Below, one piece after another: positions 27,982 to 38,345 of a DNA stretch of 40,313 nucleotides. Origin of the DNA: Neophaeotheca triangularis (taxonomy: Eukaryota); NCBI GenBank assembly GCA_054600435.1, contig BAAIJX010000050.1:124001-164313 (forward strand), read 5' to 3'. The translations under genes were made by a program, and so were the position numbers. The notes below the pieces were generated by a model. It made no database searches and was not told the DNA's origin. It saw nothing but the letters and a program-made list of their open reading frames with translations. Position 1 is the stretch's first letter. Each line of letters opens with the position of its first letter.

Positions 27982-29019
27982 TCAAGGGCGGGTCTCTGCG
28001 GCAGCACCGCCAGCATTGCCTACCGACTGCGGTGCCGAGTTGGCGTCTTCCTGTGTCCTTCCAAGAGGCAGGTCCGCGTTCAAAGCCGACTCCTGGCCGC
28101 TCAGCAGGGTGTGAACGGGTGCATTGAGCTTCTCCCTGCCCTTGAGGAAGTCAAGCTCCATGAGGAAAGAGAAGCCAAGGAGATCACCTCCAAGATCCTT
28201 GACCAGCTTGCCAGCCGCAGAAGCACTGCCGCCTATCGCACAACTGTTAGCCACCGTGATATCCTCTCCTCATCCAAAGCCAAAGCCAAACTCACCAGTA
28301 GCAATGATATCATCCACAATCACAACCTTCTGGCCCTTACGAATAGCATCCTTCTGAATCTGGAAGAAATCCTCGCCATATTCCTTTTTGAAACCCTCAG
28401 TAGCCACCTCACCGGGCAGCTTACCCTGCTTCCTGACCGGTACGAACGCCGCCCCGAGCCTCAACGCCAACGTAGGGCCGTACAAAAAGCCCCTACTTTC
28501 TAACCCAACGACCACATCCACCTTGCTCTGCTCGCCCGTCCCCGTGCCAAAAGCAGCATCAAACTGCAACTCCAGCGCGCGAATGAGGCTGTTGTGCAGC
28601 GTGTGCGAAGCGAAGAGGGGCATGATGTCCTCGAAGAGAATACCCTTGGAAGGGAAGTCTGGGAACTGGCGAAGGCCCTTTTTGAGGGTAACCTTCAGCC
28701 TGCTCAGCTCGTCTACCGCGCCGGGCTGTTGGGCGGAACTGGCGGCAGAGGCGGCGGACTGTCCTGCTTCGGCGGCATGGTTGGCGCTGGGGTTGCTGGC
28801 TTGCGCGGCGTTGTCGAGGAGGGTTGCGTCGGCGTGCGTGCCCGTCTTGCCGGTCGGGGGGTGGAATTTGGGATGCGGTTCCGTCGTCGTCGGGTCGGGC
28901 TTCGTGTCGGGTGGGTGCGAGGCGGTGCTGGGCTTGTCGCTCTTTTGCGTGCTGGCGGAGGTGTTGTCGGGGTGGCCGTGGGGAGGGTGCGAATCGAAGG
29001 AGACGGGTGCGCCGGACAT
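27982..29019 (-). CDS. APT1: Adenine phosphoribosyltransferase, ~324 aa; exons 29019-28296, 28232-27982
   Basis: Motifs [29 protein letters not shown] and the PRPP-binding motif [12 protein letters not shown], which is restored across intron 28295-28233 (GTGAGT...GCTAAC...TAG). Confidence 0.95.
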
Positions 29020-30415
29020 GATGAAGGTCGTGGGGGGGGGTTAAATAGTTATTATATAGCTGTCTGTGTAAAGGTGGTGCGACTGGTTATCAAGATTATC
29101 GGAAGGGATTATTTTTCTGCGTCGCAGCACAAGCCAGCCAGGTCGACGTGTTGCCCGTTAGCAAGACAGCGCGGCGCGGAAGGTTACACGTGCTCGGTAT
29201 TGCGTGCGAATTGGTGCAGATGAATGTACGCAAGCTCCCTCCCGAAGCAGACAGACGATCGAGCAGGGTGGCAAGCGTCATCAGACGAGTTCTGATGTGA
29301 GGTTTGACGACCAATAGATTGAATCGACTGACGACTGATTACTGATTGCAAAGTGTTGAGCTGCTGCAGGCGTGAGCAGTGAACCTTCTTTGTCTGTCCC
29401 GCAATGTCGATATCGCATATATACGATAAGCCGATAAGCGGCGCCATAAAGAACTGCAGTCTTGTCTTGTACTCCTGGACATTATTGCTCCGATAGGATT
29501 AAGACCAATAGAACCCCAAAACCCCTCTCGCACGGCAACAGGCGAGACGCTGCAATGCAACATCCTCCGCTTGACAGAAGCTCAACAGACGCACATGTAG
29601 ACCTGCGCACAGCGATCCCCAAGCTTTGGAAGCTCTGCTCTGCAGTGTTACGGTATCAACGCCACTGCTGCTGGGCTTCAAATTGCGGTGAAACCTTTGC
29701 TTCGTTGATGGTCATTGATCATACGATCGAGCACTTCCATGCAGGGGGAAAACGCAATTCTTCTCCCACGTCGAATGACCTGCAATCTTCAGGCTGATGC
29801 AAAAGTGGCGTCGACTTCGGTCCTGCATACTCCACTTGAGCATCGCCGGGAATCATCCCGACATGCCATATCTTTCTCGCTCACGGCTCACCGCTCCTAC
29901 ATGGACTTTAAAACCATTAGACAGCAGTACACAGCAGCTCTTACCCAGCCTACCTACTTCTCTCGTTCAGCACAAAATAACGTCACCTGTGGGCTAATAC
30001 CAGCCCATCAAAGGCGGCGAGGAATGCTCCATTGATAGTCGATTGTCAGATCTCATTGATCAACAAAACTGACACTGAAATTGTCCCTCGGATACATGCA
30101 CAAGCAGTGTTCAAAGAAAGGAAGTTATCGCAGTGAAGATCTAGTACGTGACTGCTGCCGCATTGACTATGTCTCTGAATTAGCTCATCTTCCTACTCAA
30201 TTGCGACAGTCTTGCTTCATCTCAGCACTCCGAAGAGGTCGCTGATTATTATCAAAGAAAATCAGTGGCCTCCTAAAATGAATGCAATAGCCGTGTCTCA
30301 TCATCCAAGCTAGCTGTTGAAGCGTTCTGCGTGCGGCTGGGAGTTCCTAGCCCTAGAAAAGTGTGGTCGTTGAGTGTCCATGGCAGTGGAGATGGCTAGC
30401 TAAACTGCCCATGGA

Positions 30416-32053
30416 TTACCGGCCGAACTTCCTCAACTCGAGCCAACGAAGAGGCGGAAAAACAAGGCCAGCCCAGGCGAAACCAACGTAATTCCCCATC
30501 TACACACAGCAAATATTAGCAAGATTCAAGATAGCCGGGATCCGTCGCAATCCACTCACATCAGCCCCGTAATCCCCAACCAGCCCAGCCAAAGGCCCAA
30601 TATACCAAACCTGAGCCATGCACAAGATCGAGCCGATCCAGCCTACCAGAAAAGCAACGAGCGCAGCGATCCCAACAGGCAGTTTCGAGCGATCGTCCCA
30701 AGCGTCCCAATTCCAGCCTAGCTTCTTCCAACGGCGGAAGATGAGGTGCTCTTCCAGGCTGATGACCGCCCAACTGGAGACCCAGTACCCCATCAAGGCG
30801 AGGAAGTTGGTGAAGATGTCCGCCAAATTCGAGCGTCCGGCAATCGCACAGACCGTGTAGATGATGACGCCTATGGTGTTCCAGATTACTCGAGGTATCT
30901 TTTCGGGATATCGGCCTAGTACTTGGAAGTCCACTGAGGTGGAGTAGGTTGGGGGGATCATGTTGGCAATCAGTCCGAGGGCTATGACGACGCTGCAGAA
31001 GGAGCCAAAAGTGCCAATGGGGTTGAAGCCTTCCACTATGAGCGATCCCGGTGAGACGTTGTAGGCGTTTGACCAAGCTTGATTGTTGAGGATGCCAGAG
31101 CCGAGGCCAATGCCGACCATGAACGCGAAGGAGAAGCCTAAGCTCAAACCGATCATGGTGACCGTGAAGACTTTCCAGCGAGGCGTGTGTTCTGGGTAGT
31201 AGACAAAGTAGTCCGCTGCTCCGCCGGCCCAAGTGATGGCTGCCGCCAGACACAAACTGAAGAAGGAAAGGCGATTGCCGGCGATTGTTCTAGCAGTCTC
31301 CCCCTCTGAAGGTTTTGCGTCGAGATCAAAGTTTGGGCCTGCGACCCCTGCCAGGATAGCAAGTACTATCAGCTGCGGTAGCCAAGCGTAGCGCTCGTAG
31401 AGGTGGAAGATACTGTAGCCGAACGTCGTGATGACCCACGTGATGACAGCCACGATCACAATCCCCACAATGACGCTGAGGTCCCCGCTGACACTGACAG
31501 CGCTTATGATTTGTCCAGCTACCACCGCATCAATGAGAGCGTATCCAAGGAGAACGATGATGTTTAGGATGACAACCAGCTTGGCCGGCCACCAACCCAT
31601 AGTGTAGCGTGCAAACACCATACTCCTGTTGCCACTCCTAGGGCCAAAAGTCGCAATGTACGCAGGTACTAGGGACCCGACGAGCATCCCAAAGATGGCG
31701 CAGAGGCTGCTGTCCAGGAAGCTGAGGTAAAAGACTGCAGGCCCGAGCATTCCAAGGGTGACGTTGTTGGCAACGAGGTTGAAGCTGAACCACAAGACAC
31801 CGATCTGGGAGTAGCCTAGCTGGCTGAGGTCATGGCGTTCCTCTGGCAATACACGCTGGATGCCGCGTGCTTCGAGGTTGTACCGGATCAAGACGCGCTC
31901 AAAAGCTTGGAGGTTGCGTTTAAAGGCGCCGTCTGTCGATGCAGAGTTGTTGTTGACATCGTTGGAGGTTCTGACGGTAGGCGCCAGATTTGGCGCGCCT
32001 TTCTCGACATCACGGGTGCTCCGACGAGCGGGTTGCTGAGGTTGATCCTCCAT
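30416..32053 (-). CDS. NCS1-family purine-cytosine permease-like transporter (Fcy2/Tpn1 type), ~525 aa; coding exons 32053-30560, 30499-30416; predicted thiamine/HMP-related substrate
   Basis: Motifs EARGIQRVLPEER, WFSFNL, GPRSGNRSMVFARYTMGWW, HLYERYAW, AADYFVYYP, NFLALMGYW and MAQVWYIGP, ending in PPLRWLELRKFGR after intron 30559-30500. The substrate is an inference from the riboswitch in its leader. Confidence 0.95.
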
Positions 32054-32059
32054 GGTCAC

Positions 32060-32326
32060 CTGTGAGTAGCATCAGCAAAAGTATCAACTTGTCAGGGGAG
32101 CATGATCCTTTCGCCGGCATTGTCCGGTGCAAGTTCAAGAAAGCCGTATAATCTCAGCAAGACCTTCCAGTGCTGCGCCTTCTCCGGACGATACCTAGTC
32201 TTGGGTGGAAGGGCGCAGTCAACTGGTTGAGATCGAGCACCGGCTCATGCATATACGTCTCAAGAATACCTTGACCTCTAGACATGATCCTGCCAGCTGT
32301 CATCTTTGCTGCCTGGGAAAGCGTAC
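32060..32326 (-). other. 5'-UTR intron of the NCS1 permease with two candidate 5' splice sites (GTACGC at 32326, AAG|GTATTC at 32269) and one 3' splice site (CACAG ending at 32060)
   Basis: A TTTTGCTGAT branch point and CACAG| acceptor lie 6 nt upstream of the main ATG. Two same-frame upstream ATGs (32303, 32285) sit between the two donors. Confidence 0.75.
32100..32250 (-). ncRNA. TPP (thiamine pyrophosphate) riboswitch aptamer, fungal intronic type (cis-regulatory RNA)
   Basis: The minus strand reads GCAUGA-GCCGGUGC...(long P3)...GCUGAGAUUAUACGGC-UUUCUUGAA-CUU-GCA-CCGG-ACAAUG-CCGG-CGA-AAG-GA-UCAUGC. Pairings seen by eye are P1 GCAUGA/UCAUGC, P2 GCCG/CGGC, P3 including CUGCGCC/GGCGCAG and CCAGU/ACUGG, P4 CUU/AAG and P5 CCGG/CCGG. 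The hallmark CUGAGA, AUAC and GCGAAAGGA elements are present. Confidence 0.92.
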
Positions 32327-32470
32327 TGTCGTGGAGAGGTTCTAGTGGAGGGTGTCAGTGTGAGTCTTGAGTTACGACGGGTCACTCTGAAAGGTGGGAC
32401 GCTGTTGCCAGCCTACCTGAGCCGAGTACTAGCGCTGTTCGGATTGGAAAGGTTGCTTTGGACAAGCACA

Positions 32471-32550
32471 GTGAGGTCCACGGGTGTACAGTGAGGTTTA
32501 CGGGTGTGTGGTGACGTTCCTGGGTGTGTAGTGAGGTCCGCTGGTGCATG
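32471..32550. repeat. Four-copy 20-bp imperfect tandem repeat (GTGAGGTYYNYGGGTGT-like) in the divergent promoter
   Basis: Units are gtgaggtccacgggtgtaca / gtgaggtttacgggtgtgtg / gtgacgttcctgggtgtgta / gtgaggtccgctggtgcatg. Confidence 0.85.
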
Positions 32551-32908: not shown

Positions 32909-35221
32909 ATGCCTCGCCCACCAGATACGTACACTCACTCGCAGTTCGAGCCGGTCGAAAGCGACGCGAAGGGCGATACGGGACGGTGTGTTCATTGTCG
33001 ACACTGGACCGGCAATCTTCGCAACCTGGCGCGCAAAAAGGACCATCTGGCTCGCTGCTCGCCGTACATAGCATGGAGAGCGCAAGGAAATGGACAGGAT
33101 ATCCCCCCTGCCAATGCCTACAACAAAAGGACCTCTCAAACCGCCTTTGGCGCCGCTGATGAGTAAGTTACATACAACCTTACCATACACACATTTTACA
33201 CACATGTTCCGCCCCACTTTGTCCTCGACGGTGCGACCGACACTACGCCGAGCTGAAACAAAATAATAATCACGTTCTTTACGCGCGCTCGTCCCCTTGA
33301 TATTTCTGCCCTTCCCCGACATCATCAGCAACGACTTCCGCCCGCCGATTCTGCGCGTAACTCACCTCCCGTGCTGATATTGGCGTCTGTTTTTACAGTA
33401 ACGTTAGTAACTACGAATACCCCGACTACAACACCGACGCCGCCATGCAAGGCCAATCATACCAGTACCCGACCACCCCAACCCAGCCGCCGGTGCAACG
33501 ACAGTCTCATACTGGTAAGTGCCTATCCACAATAGACTGCATTTTTGCACTGTACTGACGCGAACATTTCAGAATTGACTTCAAAGGTATCGTCAGACGC
33601 GTCGCTCCAACAGATTAATATTCTCAATGAGGCGCCCTCGTCAGAACCAACGAATATCGCGCTGACGCTTACGCAGAATTTCAATGAGTTTTGGGATGAC
33701 GCCAACAACCAAAAGGTGGGTGCAAAATTGCCTATACTGGAGCAGGTGAAGCTAACCTTCTGTAGTGCATGCGTGTACGCTGTAAACACTGCGGCTTTCA
33801 ACGCGCGAAGAATTCCACACGCCAGGTCGAGCATCTGCAAAGCTGCAAAGAGTTCCTCAATACCACCGAAGGTCAAGCTGCACTCGCCAACGGTGAGCTG
33901 AACAACGGCCATCAAGCTATCCGGCCAGGTCCCACAGACGTCTACCGCGGTAACAAGCCCAACCCGGGCCTCTCTGTGCAGCGTCGGGCACCCGGCAGAC
34001 CTCGCGGTGGTGGAAACGCCGGTGCCGCAATGCGCCCTCCACCCACACCAACGAAGCCTATTCCTTCCTTGGCAAATCACCTCCTACTGCGTGAAGCTGC
34101 TGTCTTCAAGGTCGCCACTGAGCAGCCTTTCCTATCACACGCCGGATGCGGCACGCTCGGATCAACCCCTCTCTCGCAGTGGCTTGCGCAAGACGGCTAC
34201 ATCTCACGAGCCTTCATCTCATTCATTGGCACGCTCATTGGAAAGATCCGTCTTCCGGAGACTCAACAAAGCCACGCGAGCACGCCATATCGTGCACTGG
34301 ATCTGCTCATCAGCGCTCTGAACAATATCCGCCGTGAAATGACTTTCTTCGAGACGACGCAGCAAAAGTACGGCCTGCCTCCGTCAGCCGGCGACGCTCC
34401 TCGCCCAGCGACAAGAGGCTTCACAGACCTTCTCGCATCGGTATCCAGCCCGAGCGCTTCATTGTTGGAGGGTATGGTTGTTCTTTGGGCCACAGAGCAC
34501 GTAAGTGGAAGGTCCGCACCCTCCGGTCTTGGCCGTCATAGCTAATTCCTATTTGCAGTGCTATCGTACCTCGTGGACCCATGCCGCCAGCTTCACTTCT
34601 ACTGTCCCACGATCAAACTACACAGTTCCATCCTACCTGCAGCAAGGTCAAGGCGGACCAATCAGTGGAGGCCCCTACGGCCTCGGTGCCAACGCCAATC
34701 CAGACAGCGCCCACATTGCTGCTCTCCACCAAGCCCTCATCCCTAACTGGACCTCCTCAGCCTTTGCCAAATTCGTCGACGCTTGCCGCTCCATCGTAGA
34801 CGAGCTCGCCAATGGGCAAACTAGCGGTAACGGCAAGGAAGAAATGGTGCGCTGCGAAAGCGTCTTCAAGCAAGTTGTTTGGCTCTGGGAGCGCATCTGG
34901 CCCGAAGTCGACGGAATGGGCCAAGAAGACGAGCTCACGCCTGAGCACGCTCGGCACTCGAGCGTCTCGCACACACCTGGTGGAGGCGGACGGACTGCCA
35001 GCAGCGGTGCTAGGGTTCGTGGGGGTGGCGCGAGCGCTTCTGGGTCCAGTGGTGCTAATGGCAATAGAAGGACTTCGAACCAGCAGCCGATTGAGATTCA
35101 GGACGATGGTGACGATGATAATGATGGCCAGGACGACAGCAACCTCGATGCTCCGGCTGCGGATTCGCCTTACGGTGGGACAGGTCTGGGTGCTATTGCG
35201 GCTGCCAACCGTATTGATTGA
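32909..35221 (+). CDS. Fusion protein with two BED-like C2HC zinc fingers, an AT-hook-like motif and a TenA/THI-4/PQQC (heme-oxygenase-like) domain, ~606 aa; exons 32909-33162, 33399-33514, 33573-33586, 33677-33715, 33766-34500, 34559-35221
   Basis: Fingers are CVHC-x15-HLARC (32987-33058) and CKHC-x13-HLQSC (33781-33846), followed by RRAPGRPRG. TenA_E/Pet18-like motifs are ATEQPFLSHAGCGTL, SQWLAQD, NIRREMTFF, LWATEHCY, LIPNWTS and IWPEV. Five GT-AG introns with branch points give one open frame. The micro-exon region is the least certain part. Confidence 0.85.
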
Positions 35222-35984
35222 GAGCCATGTAGTAGTAACGGACTGCGGAGCTAAGGGATGTCTTGACGCGGTCACTGCTCATCAACTGGACGGCCGCCGA
35301 ATGGCATGGTGTTTGTCCTGTAGGAGGCGTGGCGTCTCGGGAAACTGTACAAGAGCGCGGCGTTTTATGGTGGATGGCTCAGGGATGTGGATGGTCTTAA
35401 TATTGATACCCCGGTCAGCCATGTTGGCATTTGCTTGCGGGGAGTCACGATACATGTGGTACCTCAGCTTCTGTATCCTTCTGACTCTGACCGATGTTTA
35501 GTGACTGTTCTGGGTCTTCTCGTGATCGCAGCCATGAGAATCCCGGTAAGAAGGTGTGCCCTCTTAGGGTTTGGGTTTGAGTAAAAAAGTACTCATACCC
35601 GTACATATCAATAGACAAGAGGAACAGACCCGAGGCTTGAGATTTATTTCAAGGGTTGCTGTTTGCTAACGCTGACGTTGGTATTCTGAGAGCCAGAGCG
35701 CGGAAACACCAAGCACTGTGAAGCTGGAAGCAAAGCACACTGCACCTACCCATCGCTTGCAAAGTGAAGCCTTCGAGGTCAACCTAACAGACTACTGGAC
35801 TGAGGTGTATCGTGATCCCTAATGCTCAGACTCGCGATCAGGGTAGAACTGCAAGCTTCGTCTCGACAGGGATGGGAAAAAAACACCATCATCATGCTTC
35901 GCTCAAGTTCCTTCGCCTCGTGTATGTATTTGCTATTTCGGCAGGCCGATATGAACGACAGGACCATTCGAGCGCGCTTAAGCC

Positions 35985-38345
35985 TCATTCCTTCGCATAC
36001 CAGTCCCCTTCCTCTTCCCCTTCCTCGTCCTCGTCCTCATACTCATACAGATCCTCCTTGTCCCCCACATCCCCCACATCCCCCGCATCCCTCTCGTCCC
36101 TTTTCAAAGCAGCATCCAACATCTCCCAAGCCTCCCCCGAACCCTCAAACAAACAACACTCCCCAGCCAGCCCCTCCAACTGCTCAACCTTATCCACAAA
36201 CCTCCCTTTCTCATCCGTCTTCGCTGCCCAAACCGCCGTTGCGAGATCGAAGACGTAGGTCTGGAAGCTACTTTCGGCGCTCTGTTCGCATTGGCAGCTG
36301 GCCGGGGTTGTGCATCAAAAGTGTGGGACGGTGTACCGAAAGGCGCGACGGAGATCTGATTGTGCAGCGCTGTCTGAGAAGCCGCGTTGGCTGCTAAAGT
36401 AAAACGATTTGCGGTCGTGCTGTCTTGCATTTGCGGAGATGAAGGTCCTGGAGGATAGACATTGCTCGTGATGGGCTTACTCCAATGTCCAACGGCATGC
36501 CGTTCGGTGCAAGTGGGACAAGCAGGGTCACTACATCTAGGAAGATTGTAGTCTCGTAGGTAGGCATCGTGCATTTCCTGAATTTGCCATTCCAATTGAC
36601 TCAAGTCGAAAAGCGGCTCTATGATCTGAATCATCCAGGGGTTCCAATGAAGCATCTTGTATATGATCTCACGTATGTGTCTGTCTTGCAATCCAAGAGC
36701 TATCTGTTGCGGGTCGAATTCTGGCATCTGAATCAGAGTGTAGAATAGTCCTGCTCGAGGGAATCGGCGTGATCCGTCCGACAAGGTGTAGTATAGCAGG
36801 GGCGCAGCCGGCTGTTGAGGTTCCTGTGGGTTGCTGGGATTTGAGGTGGGTGGATGTGGTACGGTTGGTTGCTGCTGGACATTTGGTGCCTTTGATTGAG
36901 GACCTTGATTTGCAGACTGTGCGGTTTGACTGGTATTGTCGCCACTTCCGTGAGAAAATGGAGGCCTAGTTGGTTGTCTCTGGTCGTTCAACGACAGGCC
37001 GTACCGAGAAGGCAGGATGTCGCTGAATGCTAGAAGCGCTTGTTTGAGTATGCTGATTCGCAGACCGAGTGATTTGAATAGTACCACCGCGAGGGCATGG
37101 AGGCACAGGTGGTAGGCTTTGGTCGCTCGCAGACGATTGTCCAAAGGGGGTCGAATGCTGCTCGATACTTGGCGCGCTTAGTTGGCTTCGCTGTGCGGCG
37201 GACTGAACAGCTGACTGTGCGTTGCTGACACATTTTCTGATGATAAGAGGCACGGCCAGTTGATCAGGACTTCTTGCACTTGTATCAGAATGATGTTGCA
37301 TATCTGGCCTGTGCTGTTGTGCACGAGGAGGTTTAGGTTGAGTAGTGTGATTAATGTTGTCGACTTCATTACTACGTACACAAGGCACGCCTGGTAGATA
37401 TTGTGACGAGTGAGTACTATTCTCCACTCGCTGGGCCACAGACTGAGAAGCAACTTGCGTTTCCAGGGTATTGGTGCCAGAATCCAATTGCGTGGTCGGC
37501 CTTGTCCGGGCAGCAGTAGATGCAGCGGGCTCACCTCCTTCTACTGGGTGCGCCCCTCGCTGGAGAAAGACACCATGAAGATGGTCGCAATTTACAGGAA
37601 CAGTGCCCGTCTCGGCTGCTATCTCGCGTTGGTGCAAACTATCTCGATCGCTGGCCTGAAACTTCCTTTTAGCAGGGTTCGAAGTAGTCGGTGATCGTAT
37701 GCCAGACGGAAGCTCCTGCTTGATCTTAGGAGCACTTTCCCGTAGTTCAGGCGATCGCGCGTTGCCAGTAGAGACTACTGGAGGTCCTACGTCCGACGCA
37801 GGCTTGTCGTTGCGACTGTCTCCAACGTCGGCTTCGGTAGCAGAGGCATTCTCCTGCTTGATTCGCGGAGCGCTTCGCTCATCGGTCACGTCTCTCTCAC
37901 CATTTATCTCGCGATTGTTCGGTCTCGGTAGATCAGCGACCTGAGTAGGAGCAGGGTTGGGGTTCCTCTCAGCCTCAGCCTGCCTTTCGCTGGGCCTCAG
38001 ATCCTAGGCGGTCTGGCTGGAAGGGTTTTCTTCATCCTTGATTGCTACGGTATCCTGAGAGTAGCTCGAGTACTCCGAAGCACCCAGATGTGCCAGTATC
38101 GCGCGAGGATCCCGAAAACGCCGCTTTGGACTTCTGAGGGCACCGTCAGGGTGGGAGGATTGATGCTGCGAAGAGAATGGTCGCGCTCGAACATTTCCTG
38201 CTGATGGGCCAGCTTGAGAGTCATGGAAACCTCGGAAAAGCCATTGGAACTGATCAAATTCCCCCCGCCCCCCCCCACTCAATCTTCGTCTTTTGGAACC
38301 GACCGCCATCAACAAGCGACTACTACTCTGACCCAACGCCGGCAT
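35985..38345 (-). pseudogene. Disrupted gene for a large low-complexity protein (in-frame stop plus apparent frame changes)
   Basis: ORF 38345-38004 and ORF 37889-36966 are in the same frame, separated only by a single TAG at 38006-38004. Protein-like sequence then moves to other frames (37144-36104, then the acidic tail ending at 35985) without splice signals that I could identify. Confidence 0.45.

Follow-up and report, generated by a model that had tools for sequence, protein, structure and literature searches.

We analysed a 40,313-nucleotide stretch of the Neophaeotheca triangularis genome (assembly GCA_054600435.1, contig BAAIJX010000050.1, positions 124,001 to 164,313 of the forward strand; hereafter the window, in whose coordinates all positions are given) and found on its forward strand a gene (32909..35221) whose single protein product joins two BED-like fingers and a basic patch to a domain with the TenA fold and an acidic tail. 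Divergently upstream of it lies a permease gene whose leader carries an element resembling a thiamine pyrophosphate (TPP) riboswitch. We propose that the gene encodes a Dothideomycete-specific nuclear regulator. The best reading of the combined evidence is a DNA-binding regulator linked to thiamine, to which we would give an even chance of being correct.

The gene model was obtained by reading the sequence between 32400 and 35800 together with its open frames. It consists of five exons (32909-33162, 33399-33514, 33573-33715, 33766-34500 and 34559-35221), with a start ATG at 32909 and a stop TGA at 35219-35221. All introns begin with GT and end with AG, and the spliced product is 636 amino acids long, arranged in the order finger 1, finger 2, basic patch, TenA-fold domain and acidic tail. 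A preliminary description of the window had listed two C-x2-C-x13/15-H-x3-C fingers with preceding aromatic residues, the sequence RRAPGRPRG, an acidic tail and a TenA fold, all of which were recovered at their positions. From end to end, acidic tail and terminal DSPYGGTGLGA included, the window exons can be aligned with annotated Dothideomycete proteins, which confirms that the fingers and the TenA fold belong to one conserved protein. Both fingers stand ahead of the TenA domain in 18 of 99 sequences (17 homologues and the window model, from a set of 98 homologues plus that model). Exon 4 alone carries the basic patch together with finger 2 and the first 60% of the helical TenA domain, and at L050, a related locus from a metagenome, a single open frame of 502 codons runs from finger 2 to the C-terminus, so a split-gene artefact is very unlikely. 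The frame of exons 1 to 3 also closes with canonical splice sites. RNA data are sparse: in one metatranscriptome run 8% of the sampled words were present, and two contigs from it, of 165 and 259 nt (identity at least 99%), fall on the gene, both in exon 5 and neither spanning an exon joint. The lack of RNA reads across an exon junction is what could be said for the finger exons and the TenA exons being separate genes; set against the shared exon, the unbroken frame in L050, the 18 sequences and the closed frame of exons 1 to 3, we regard the probability of this as close to negligible.

A search with exon 4 returned 102 longer proteins at E≤1e-3, with 60% identity in the best match. The named sources are Dothideomycete fungi, with one exception labelled Quercus suber, and annotated homologues occur in Zymoseptoria, Cercospora, Pseudocercospora, Parastagonospora, Pyrenophora and Alternaria. 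Their annotations include 'heme oxygenase-like protein', 'Thiaminase-2/PQQC domain-containing', one 'putative transcription factor' and one 'TenA transcription activator'; annotation of the family does not go beyond 'hypothetical' or a fold name. A family profile searched against 1.84 billion representative sequences gave 624 matches at E≤1e-3, among which many finger-less proteins of 230-300 amino acids lie below the finger-bearing forms. The domain has its closest relatives in these stand-alone fungal TenA proteins, which come from Aspergillus, Penicillium, Thermoascus and lichen fungi; against the family profile they reach E 1e-67 to 1e-36, and their identity to the stand-alone query P0136 is 40-47%. 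Like the fused family they have the motifs WL.QD, LWATE.CY and WLEERFWP, but they lack fingers, and in about 90% of cases their pocket is canonical. They are called 'transcription regulator PAB1642', 'thiaminase' or 'heme oxygenase-like', where the word 'regulator' is inherited from old TenA annotation and not from experiment.

Finger 1 (CVHC-x15-H-x3-C, residues 27-50; 32987..33058, forward strand) is present in 21 of the 99 sequences, all from Capnodiales-like taxa, which constitute the two-finger clade. In an alignment, window exon 1 and 22 finger-1-bearing homologues all share C27, H29, C30, W33 and H46, and nearly all of them C50. Finger 2 (CKHC-x13-H-x3-C, residues 177-198; 33781..33846, forward strand) is the family-wide finger: its motif was found, near-invariant, in 92 of the 99 sequences, with the signature C-x2-C-G-[FY]-x-R-A-K-N-[ST]-T-R-Q-x-E-H-L-x-x-C (mostly [FY]-V, T-T and Q-[IV]-E). 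Phenylalanine, tyrosine or tryptophan residues precede both fingers, with an upstream F-x-E-[FY]-x-D that is near-invariant; the aromatic strand upstream of finger 2 is encoded in exon 3. Read from the sequence, both fingers thus have the C-x2-C-xn-H-x3-5-[HC] spacing and upstream aromatics expected of BED fingers. In AlphaFold2 (AF2) models of homologue P0002 and of window exon 1 (23-row alignment), the fingers fold with confidence into three short strands followed by two helices, with a predicted local distance difference test score (pLDDT) of about 88-96; the model of window exon 1 reached 84-88 over finger 1. Three more divergent finger-bearing relatives (P0105, P0109 and P0114) have altered finger signatures (e.g. 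CQSCGFVQPKNATWQAEHL) and no Pfam TenA match at E≤0.01, and may represent a still more decayed branch.

The preliminary description called these fingers BED-like, and BED-like is the best-fitting label, since BED is the nearest known finger type by four independent but weak lines of evidence, although it falls below threshold in every test. Besides the spacing and aromatics, the Pfam zf-BED family matched 47 of the 98 members at E≤1, compared with at most four members for any other finger family; the window exons themselves had no zf-BED match at that level. A Foldseek search with the finger placed BED structures second and third (ZBED1 2ct5, E 2.1; ZBED3 9l4j_E, E 3.4), and in VIA-align ZBED2 (2djr) came joint first with Serrate, at Z 4.2 and a root mean square deviation of 3.1 over 62 residues. 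The nearest named language-model clusters were zf-BED or zf-BED_2, with scores of 0.84-0.87 (all below 0.9). The family profile compared with PDB sequences retrieved no BED or other finger entry. The fingers share with BED domains (PF02892; ZBED1/2/3; hAT transposases) the C-x2-C-xn-H-x3-C spacing, the upstream aromatics and, as modelled, the order strand-strand-strand-helix, and differ in the R-A-K-N-T-T-R-Q-x-E-H-L signature, which is specific to the TenA-finger family. Descent from a hAT transposase, also suggested earlier, found no support beyond this sub-threshold likeness, and no hAT dimerisation or transposase domain was detected near the fingers.

A basic patch follows finger 2. In the window protein it reads RRAPGRPRG (residues 244-252; 33982..34008, forward strand), which contains an AT-hook-like GRP core. 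That core exists, as had been proposed, but only in the window protein and its closest relative (2 of 99 sequences); what the family conserves is PNPNLQV-x-RRGPN-x-KR (consensus RRGPNxKR), in which the flanking arginine and lysine positions are maintained. The conserved basic patch is probably a nuclear localisation signal. At the other end of the protein, an acidic stretch (residues 595-613) is followed by a C-terminal motif, DSPYGGTGLGAIAAANR (residues 618-634; together 35093..35212, forward strand). Both are kept in the two-finger clade and in Aureobasidium-type members, and they are candidates for an activation or partner-binding tail. Together with the basic patch, this acidic tail and its conserved end motif would fit a nuclear regulatory role.

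The helical domain between these regions (residues 271-537; 34063..34921, forward strand) is interrupted by intron 4 (34501-34558) inside the motif WATEH|CY. Comparison of the family profile with the PDB identified TenA from Pyrococcus furiosus (1rtw, E 2e-9) and Arabidopsis At3g16990 (2f2g, E 1e-5). The fold was assessed on a model not of the window protein but of its closest two-finger homologue, P0002, which is 60% identical to window exon 4 (AF2 input alignment of 34 rows). This model, with pLDDT mostly above 90 over the domain, matched 1rtw and 2f2g in Foldseek at E 4e-8 with a template modelling score (TM, by target) of 0.82-0.87, and lower ranks were occupied by Bacillus subtilis TenA, yeast THI20, UndA and CADD. 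Pfam TENA_THI-4 (PF03070) scored 15.6 bits (E 0.014) on window exon 4 alone, against a gathering score of 22, and did not match exon 5. P0002 reached 21.1 bits, just under the cut-off, whereas the one-finger members P0013, P0031, P0055 and P0064 passed it with 38.8-43.1 bits over profile positions 10-205 of 210; overall, 79 of the 98 members matched at E≤1. These orthologues and the superposition support the TenA domain that had been described from the letters of the window.

TenA proteins are divided into a Cys class, exemplified by B. subtilis, and a Glu class, found in P. furiosus and plants (as set out in passages of PMC5623701 and PMC10277260). In profile alignments the family sequence L-W-A-T-E-H-C-Y corresponds to F-W-A-I-E-A-V-Y in 2f2g and to L-Y-C-E-E-K-A-Y in 1rtw, with T-E-H falling on E128-E129-K130 of 1rtw and on I-E-A of 2f2g. 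All 19 two-finger proteins and 76 of the 84 one-finger proteins retain the Glu, in the same helix and without a nucleophilic Cys, which is the pattern of the TenA_E subclass. Thr414 and Glu415 occupy what is presumably the position of the catalytic Cys135 of B. subtilis TenA (placed on 1rtw from the B. subtilis sequence and PMC5623701, not by an alignment of our own), and the conserved Cys417 aligns with Ala131 of 1rtw, three residues on. The preliminary description had taken the Glu of WATEH as a mark of an apparently dead enzyme. It is instead the defining mark of the active TenA_E, or P. furiosus, subclass and gives no sign of inactivity. The window domain thus resembles 1rtw and 2f2g, its best profile and fold matches, in its signature helix (LWATEHCY versus FWAIEAVY) and in keeping Tyr132 and Trp156. 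It differs in that the known proteins stand alone at about 210-220 amino acids, whereas the window protein adds fingers, a basic patch and an acidic tail to the domain, and a loop insertion of about 45 residues precedes the NWTS motif.

The pocket for HMP, or 4-amino-5-hydroxymethyl-2-methylpyrimidine, erodes stepwise from stand-alone fungal proteins through one-finger fusions to the two-finger clade. The contacts of HMP phosphate (HMP-P) in 1RTW are Asp43, Phe46, Tyr105, Tyr132, Trp156 and Glu198, and the substitutions D44A, Y47F, Y112F and E205A impair B. subtilis TenA (both reported in passages of PMC5623701). We counted residues at these positions in a 262-sequence alignment, in which they were placed through the HMMER profile alignment to 1rtw and not by superposition of active sites. 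The position of Asp43 holds Asp in 142 of 158 stand-alone fungal proteins, 72 of 84 one-finger proteins and 3 of 19 two-finger proteins. At Phe46, Tyr predominates in stand-alone (140 of 158) and one-finger (61 of 84) sequences and Ile in the two-finger clade (17 of 19). Tyr105 is Tyr in 144/158, 21/84 and 8/19 sequences, respectively, while Glu198 is Glu in 141/158 stand-alone and 47/84 one-finger proteins and Trp in 18/19 two-finger proteins. At Asp43, Phe46/Tyr47, Tyr105/112, Tyr132, Trp156 and Glu198/205 the window protein itself has D, I, F, Y, W and W; it lacks the full set of HMP contacts and retains the TenA_E Glu, Tyr132 and Trp156. The earlier observation that Trp replaces the conserved Glu of E-x-x-F-W, in the W-E-R-I-W of WLWERIW located exactly at 34886-34900, is therefore a property of nearly the whole clade. 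The retention of the pyrimidine-binding QD holds for the window protein, which is an exception among two-finger proteins in this respect.

From these changes we conclude that canonical amino-HMP chemistry is unlikely in the window protein and that its TenA domain is under strong selection for another role. A Cys two residues after the Glu, in E-x-C-Y, is conserved in 111 of the 158 stand-alone sequences, in 65 of the 84 one-finger sequences and in 11 of the 19 from the two-finger clade; it does not occupy the Cys135 position, but because of its conservation residual or altered chemistry may persist. The proposal of a pseudo-enzyme domain accordingly survives as far as the loss of HMP-contact residues in this lineage is concerned, but not in its use of the Glu as evidence. 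The fused proteins have also gained residues: H296, C299, H316, H416 and H468 are each present in at least 93% of them and in at most 11% of stand-alone proteins, with Tyr at the H316 position in the window protein. With these four histidines and one cysteine, the fused family may have acquired a site for a metal or a ligand.

The same TenA subfamily has been joined to a different module elsewhere. In P0141 (609 amino acids) and P0309 (446 amino acids), which are 48% identical to each other, two helix-turn-helix (HTH) domains of the CENP-B/pogo type, HTH_ABP1_N and HTH_Tnp_Tc5, precede the TenA domain. Both HTH domains score above their Pfam cut-offs, and the pocket motifs look intact. This architecture was seen only in these two of 66 matches examined; P0156 has a weak HTH match in an N-terminal extension. 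The HTH fusion represents a second, independent joining to a DNA-binding module of transposase type, and this recurrence is the strongest indirect argument that the subfamily acts on or near DNA.

The divergent upstream neighbour of the TenA-finger gene encodes an NCS1-family permease of 517 amino acids (30503..32053, reverse strand; ATG at 32053-32051). It scored 59.5 bits against Pfam Transp_cyt_pur (PF02133), above the cut-off of 23.5, and matched the NCBIfam families ncs1 (E 1e-44) and CytX (E 2e-7), both under their cut-offs. Synteny was examined in 80 metagenome loci with relatives of the gene, where two-finger loci were counted if they had at least 2.5 kb of upstream sequence. The permease is the upstream neighbour at nine of the ten two-finger loci and at one of the 20 others.

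The permease leader contains a TPP-riboswitch-like aptamer (32096..32254, reverse strand). In an alignment of the intergenic region across eight sequences, three blocks immediately upstream of the permease ATG are invariant; on the permease strand they read GCAUGAGCCGGUGCU, CUGAGAU.AUACGGC and CUGG..AA.GCCAGCGAAAG.AUCAUGC and correspond to TPP-aptamer cores. The riboswitch surfaced in Rfam searches with E-value thresholds, after these blocks had been noticed. RF00059 gave 38.5 bits in the window (E 5e-6 in a 601-nt search), where it was the best match, and 29.8-37.2 bits at the same place and on the same strand in five of five relatives, where it was the only match at E≤1. The region has the core elements of a TPP aptamer (CUGAGA, CUGG..AAUGCCAGCG.AGGA and a P1-P5 architecture with variable P3): P1, P2 and P4/P5 are predicted, the length of P3 varies between sequences, and three pairs show compensatory change. 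Branch-point-like and CAG sequences follow the aptamer just before the permease ATG, and the aptamer probably lies within a 5'-untranslated-region intron that ends at this CAG and is controlled by the riboswitch. TPP riboswitches on genes of a 'nucleoside transporter family' have been described in Ascomycota (in passages of PMC5882874). The element found here is likewise a TPP-type aptamer in the leader of a transporter gene, but it scores below the Rfam gathering threshold, and those passages do not mention a divergent pairing with a TenA-finger gene.

TenA enzymes are oligomers. Under the reading that we favour, an ancestral protein would have carried a single CCHC BED-like finger, which was duplicated in the clade of the window, and the finger or fingers would bind DNA together with the adjoining basic patch. 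The TenA_E-derived domain, which in the two-finger clade would no longer be a canonical amino-HMP hydrolase, might bind a ligand or a partner or drive oligomerisation, and the acidic tail and conserved end motif would recruit the transcription machinery. In the clade of the window, the targets would be the divergent NCS1 permease gene and the promoter of the regulator itself. Uptake of thiamine or pyrimidine precursors would then be gated at two levels, with the protein acting on transcription and TPP on the permease RNA.

Several results count against such a thiamine-linked DNA-binding regulator. The assignment of DNA binding would rest on weak labels: no sequence reached the zf-BED (PF02892) gathering score of 20.6 bits, the best E-value being 0.026 and the top score among the matches listed 13.5 bits; all Foldseek matches to the finger had E>1; and in VIA-align the ZBED2 match was followed by TUT4, ARS2 and spliceosomal fingers, with Z never above 4.2 and RNA-binding C2H2-like fingers scoring comparably. 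The link to thiamine is limited in its distribution. The pairing with the permease is confined to the two-finger clade, and some of the nine paired loci are near-duplicates (L060/L061 and L069/L070), leaving about five lineages. The neighbours of one-finger genes (a GH5 cellulase, a Kre9-like gene and unidentified genes) have no relation to thiamine. At the Rfam gathering score (54.3 bits for RF00059), nothing was detected in the window or in eight related loci, and a comparison of 8-10 orthologous intergenic regions for shared promoter motifs recovered only the riboswitch blocks and their flanking sequence. The loss of pyrimidine-contact residues weighs against HMP as the sensed ligand, and catalysis may persist, given that the TenA_E Glu, the stacking Tyr, Trp156 and the E-x-C-Y Cys are largely kept.

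The last of these points is the core of an alternative in which the protein is still an enzyme. As a TenA_E amidohydrolase or aminohydrolase, it would convert a pyrimidine from thiamine breakdown, imported by the permease, to HMP, and the fingers would be secondary, serving localisation or moonlighting. TenA genes cluster with pyrimidine transporters in bacteria, and the permease has a faint match to CytX. In addition to the residues just named, the full pocket is present in stand-alone fungal homologues and most of it in most one-finger fusions, and the Arabidopsis TenA_E protein is an active Glu-class enzyme that acts on formylamino-HMP (in passages of PMC10470507). Yet the two-finger clade replaces residues at mutation-sensitive positions (Trp in 18/19, Ile in 17/19, Asp kept in 3/19), an enzyme would have no evident use for a pair of conserved fingers with a basic patch and an acidic tail, and the same subfamily is joined to another DNA-binding module elsewhere. 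We consider a retained enzymatic function unlikely. The gained residues raise another alternative, that the protein is a transcription factor whose TenA domain senses metal, heme or redox state through the new His and Cys residues, or only oligomerises. The sharp contrast between fused and stand-alone proteins at these five positions is in keeping with this, as are the disappearance of canonical pyrimidine contacts, the thiamine-unrelated neighbours of one-finger genes and the fold itself, which is that of heme oxygenase and of the di-iron enzymes UndA and CADD further down the fold list. The H316 position is, however, Tyr in the window protein, and the conserved pairing with a gene that carries a TPP riboswitch speaks for thiamine; we judge a sensor of this kind to be unlikely.

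Two further alternatives concern the nucleic acid that is recognised. The fingers may bind RNA instead of DNA, with the protein acting on transcripts, for example in splicing of the riboswitch leader. Control of the adjoining permease probably runs through splicing of an intron that carries the riboswitch, and in VIA-align Serrate/ARS2 (Z 4.2 and 3.2), TUT4 (Z 4.0) and spliceosomal U1/U2-type fingers (Z 3.2-3.6) match the finger about as weakly as BED domains do. All of these scores lie within the range that the tool describes as a "common arrangement", however, while the sequence-based leads all point to BED and acidic tails are typical of activators, which makes RNA binding improbable. HMP is nearly isosteric with the base of 5-hydroxymethylcytosine, and the TenA pocket could conceivably, in place of sensing a free vitamin precursor, read or process a 5-substituted pyrimidine base in DNA, which would make the family a new class of modified-base readers or erasers. 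The joining of this subfamily at least twice to transposase-type modules (BED-like, and CENP-B/Tc5 HTH) would favour such a role. The aminopyrimidine contacts are eroded in the clade of the window and the conserved neighbour is a TPP-riboswitch gene, both of which weigh against it, and we regard it as highly improbable.

Other features of the window were annotated. The region between the permease and the finger gene contains a 20-bp tandem repeat identified with Tandem Repeats Finder (consensus AGTGAGGTCCACGGGTGTGT, 3.5 copies, 32470..32539), which is not common to the orthologous intergenic regions of relatives. About 1.5 kb beyond the permease is a gene with a phosphoribosyltransferase domain (28273-29040, reverse strand), a conserved neighbour in seven related loci that include two-finger and other groups. 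Downstream of the TenA-finger gene, low-complexity open frames rich in Pro, Ser and Gly-Arg occur on both strands (35788-36400 and 36107-37177) and have no Pfam match. Besides the phosphoribosyltransferase, the remaining genes of the window encode a multicopper oxidase, a Bax inhibitor, an asparagine synthase, a major facilitator superfamily (MFS) protein, a NUDIX protein, an acyl-CoA dehydrogenase, a CoA transferase and HsbA.

In yeast, Thi3 is a decarboxylase-fold TPP sensor that acts with Thi2 and Pdc2. It resembles the regulator proposed here in that an enzyme fold of thiamine biology is reused as a sensor in thiamine gene regulation, but Thi3 has another fold and lacks its own DNA-binding domain, whereas here the sensor and DNA-binding part would be combined in one chain. 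To our knowledge, yeasts, with Thi2/Thi3/Pdc2 and Thi1/Thi5, are the main source of what is understood about transcriptional control of thiamine genes, also as regards filamentous fungi. Outside the yeasts, the control described in passages of PMC5882874 is the TPP riboswitch. A regulatory, non-enzymatic role for a TenA fold has been shown experimentally for LysR2 of Streptomyces, a TenA-family regulator that works through protein-protein contact and sequesters a PadR repressor; it is bacterial, lacks a DNA-binding domain and is encoded in a biosynthetic gene cluster (all from passages of PMC12817078). The parts of the fused family are thus of known kinds (a TenA_E fold, a BED-like finger and an enzyme-derived sensor). 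Our literature searches found no paper on the TenA-finger family and no description of this combination or of its evolutionary series.

If the protein were merely an enzyme with odd appendages, it would be of modest interest. The series of pockets from stand-alone through one-finger to two-finger proteins offers a clean natural series for the change from enzyme to pseudo-enzyme, and the permease with its riboswitch provides a concrete candidate target gene. Should the thiamine-linked regulator prove correct, the TenA fold, long mis-named a 'transcription enhancer', would really be wired to DNA-binding modules, and the family is a candidate for the missing protein layer of thiamine control in a fungal class that includes major crop pathogens.

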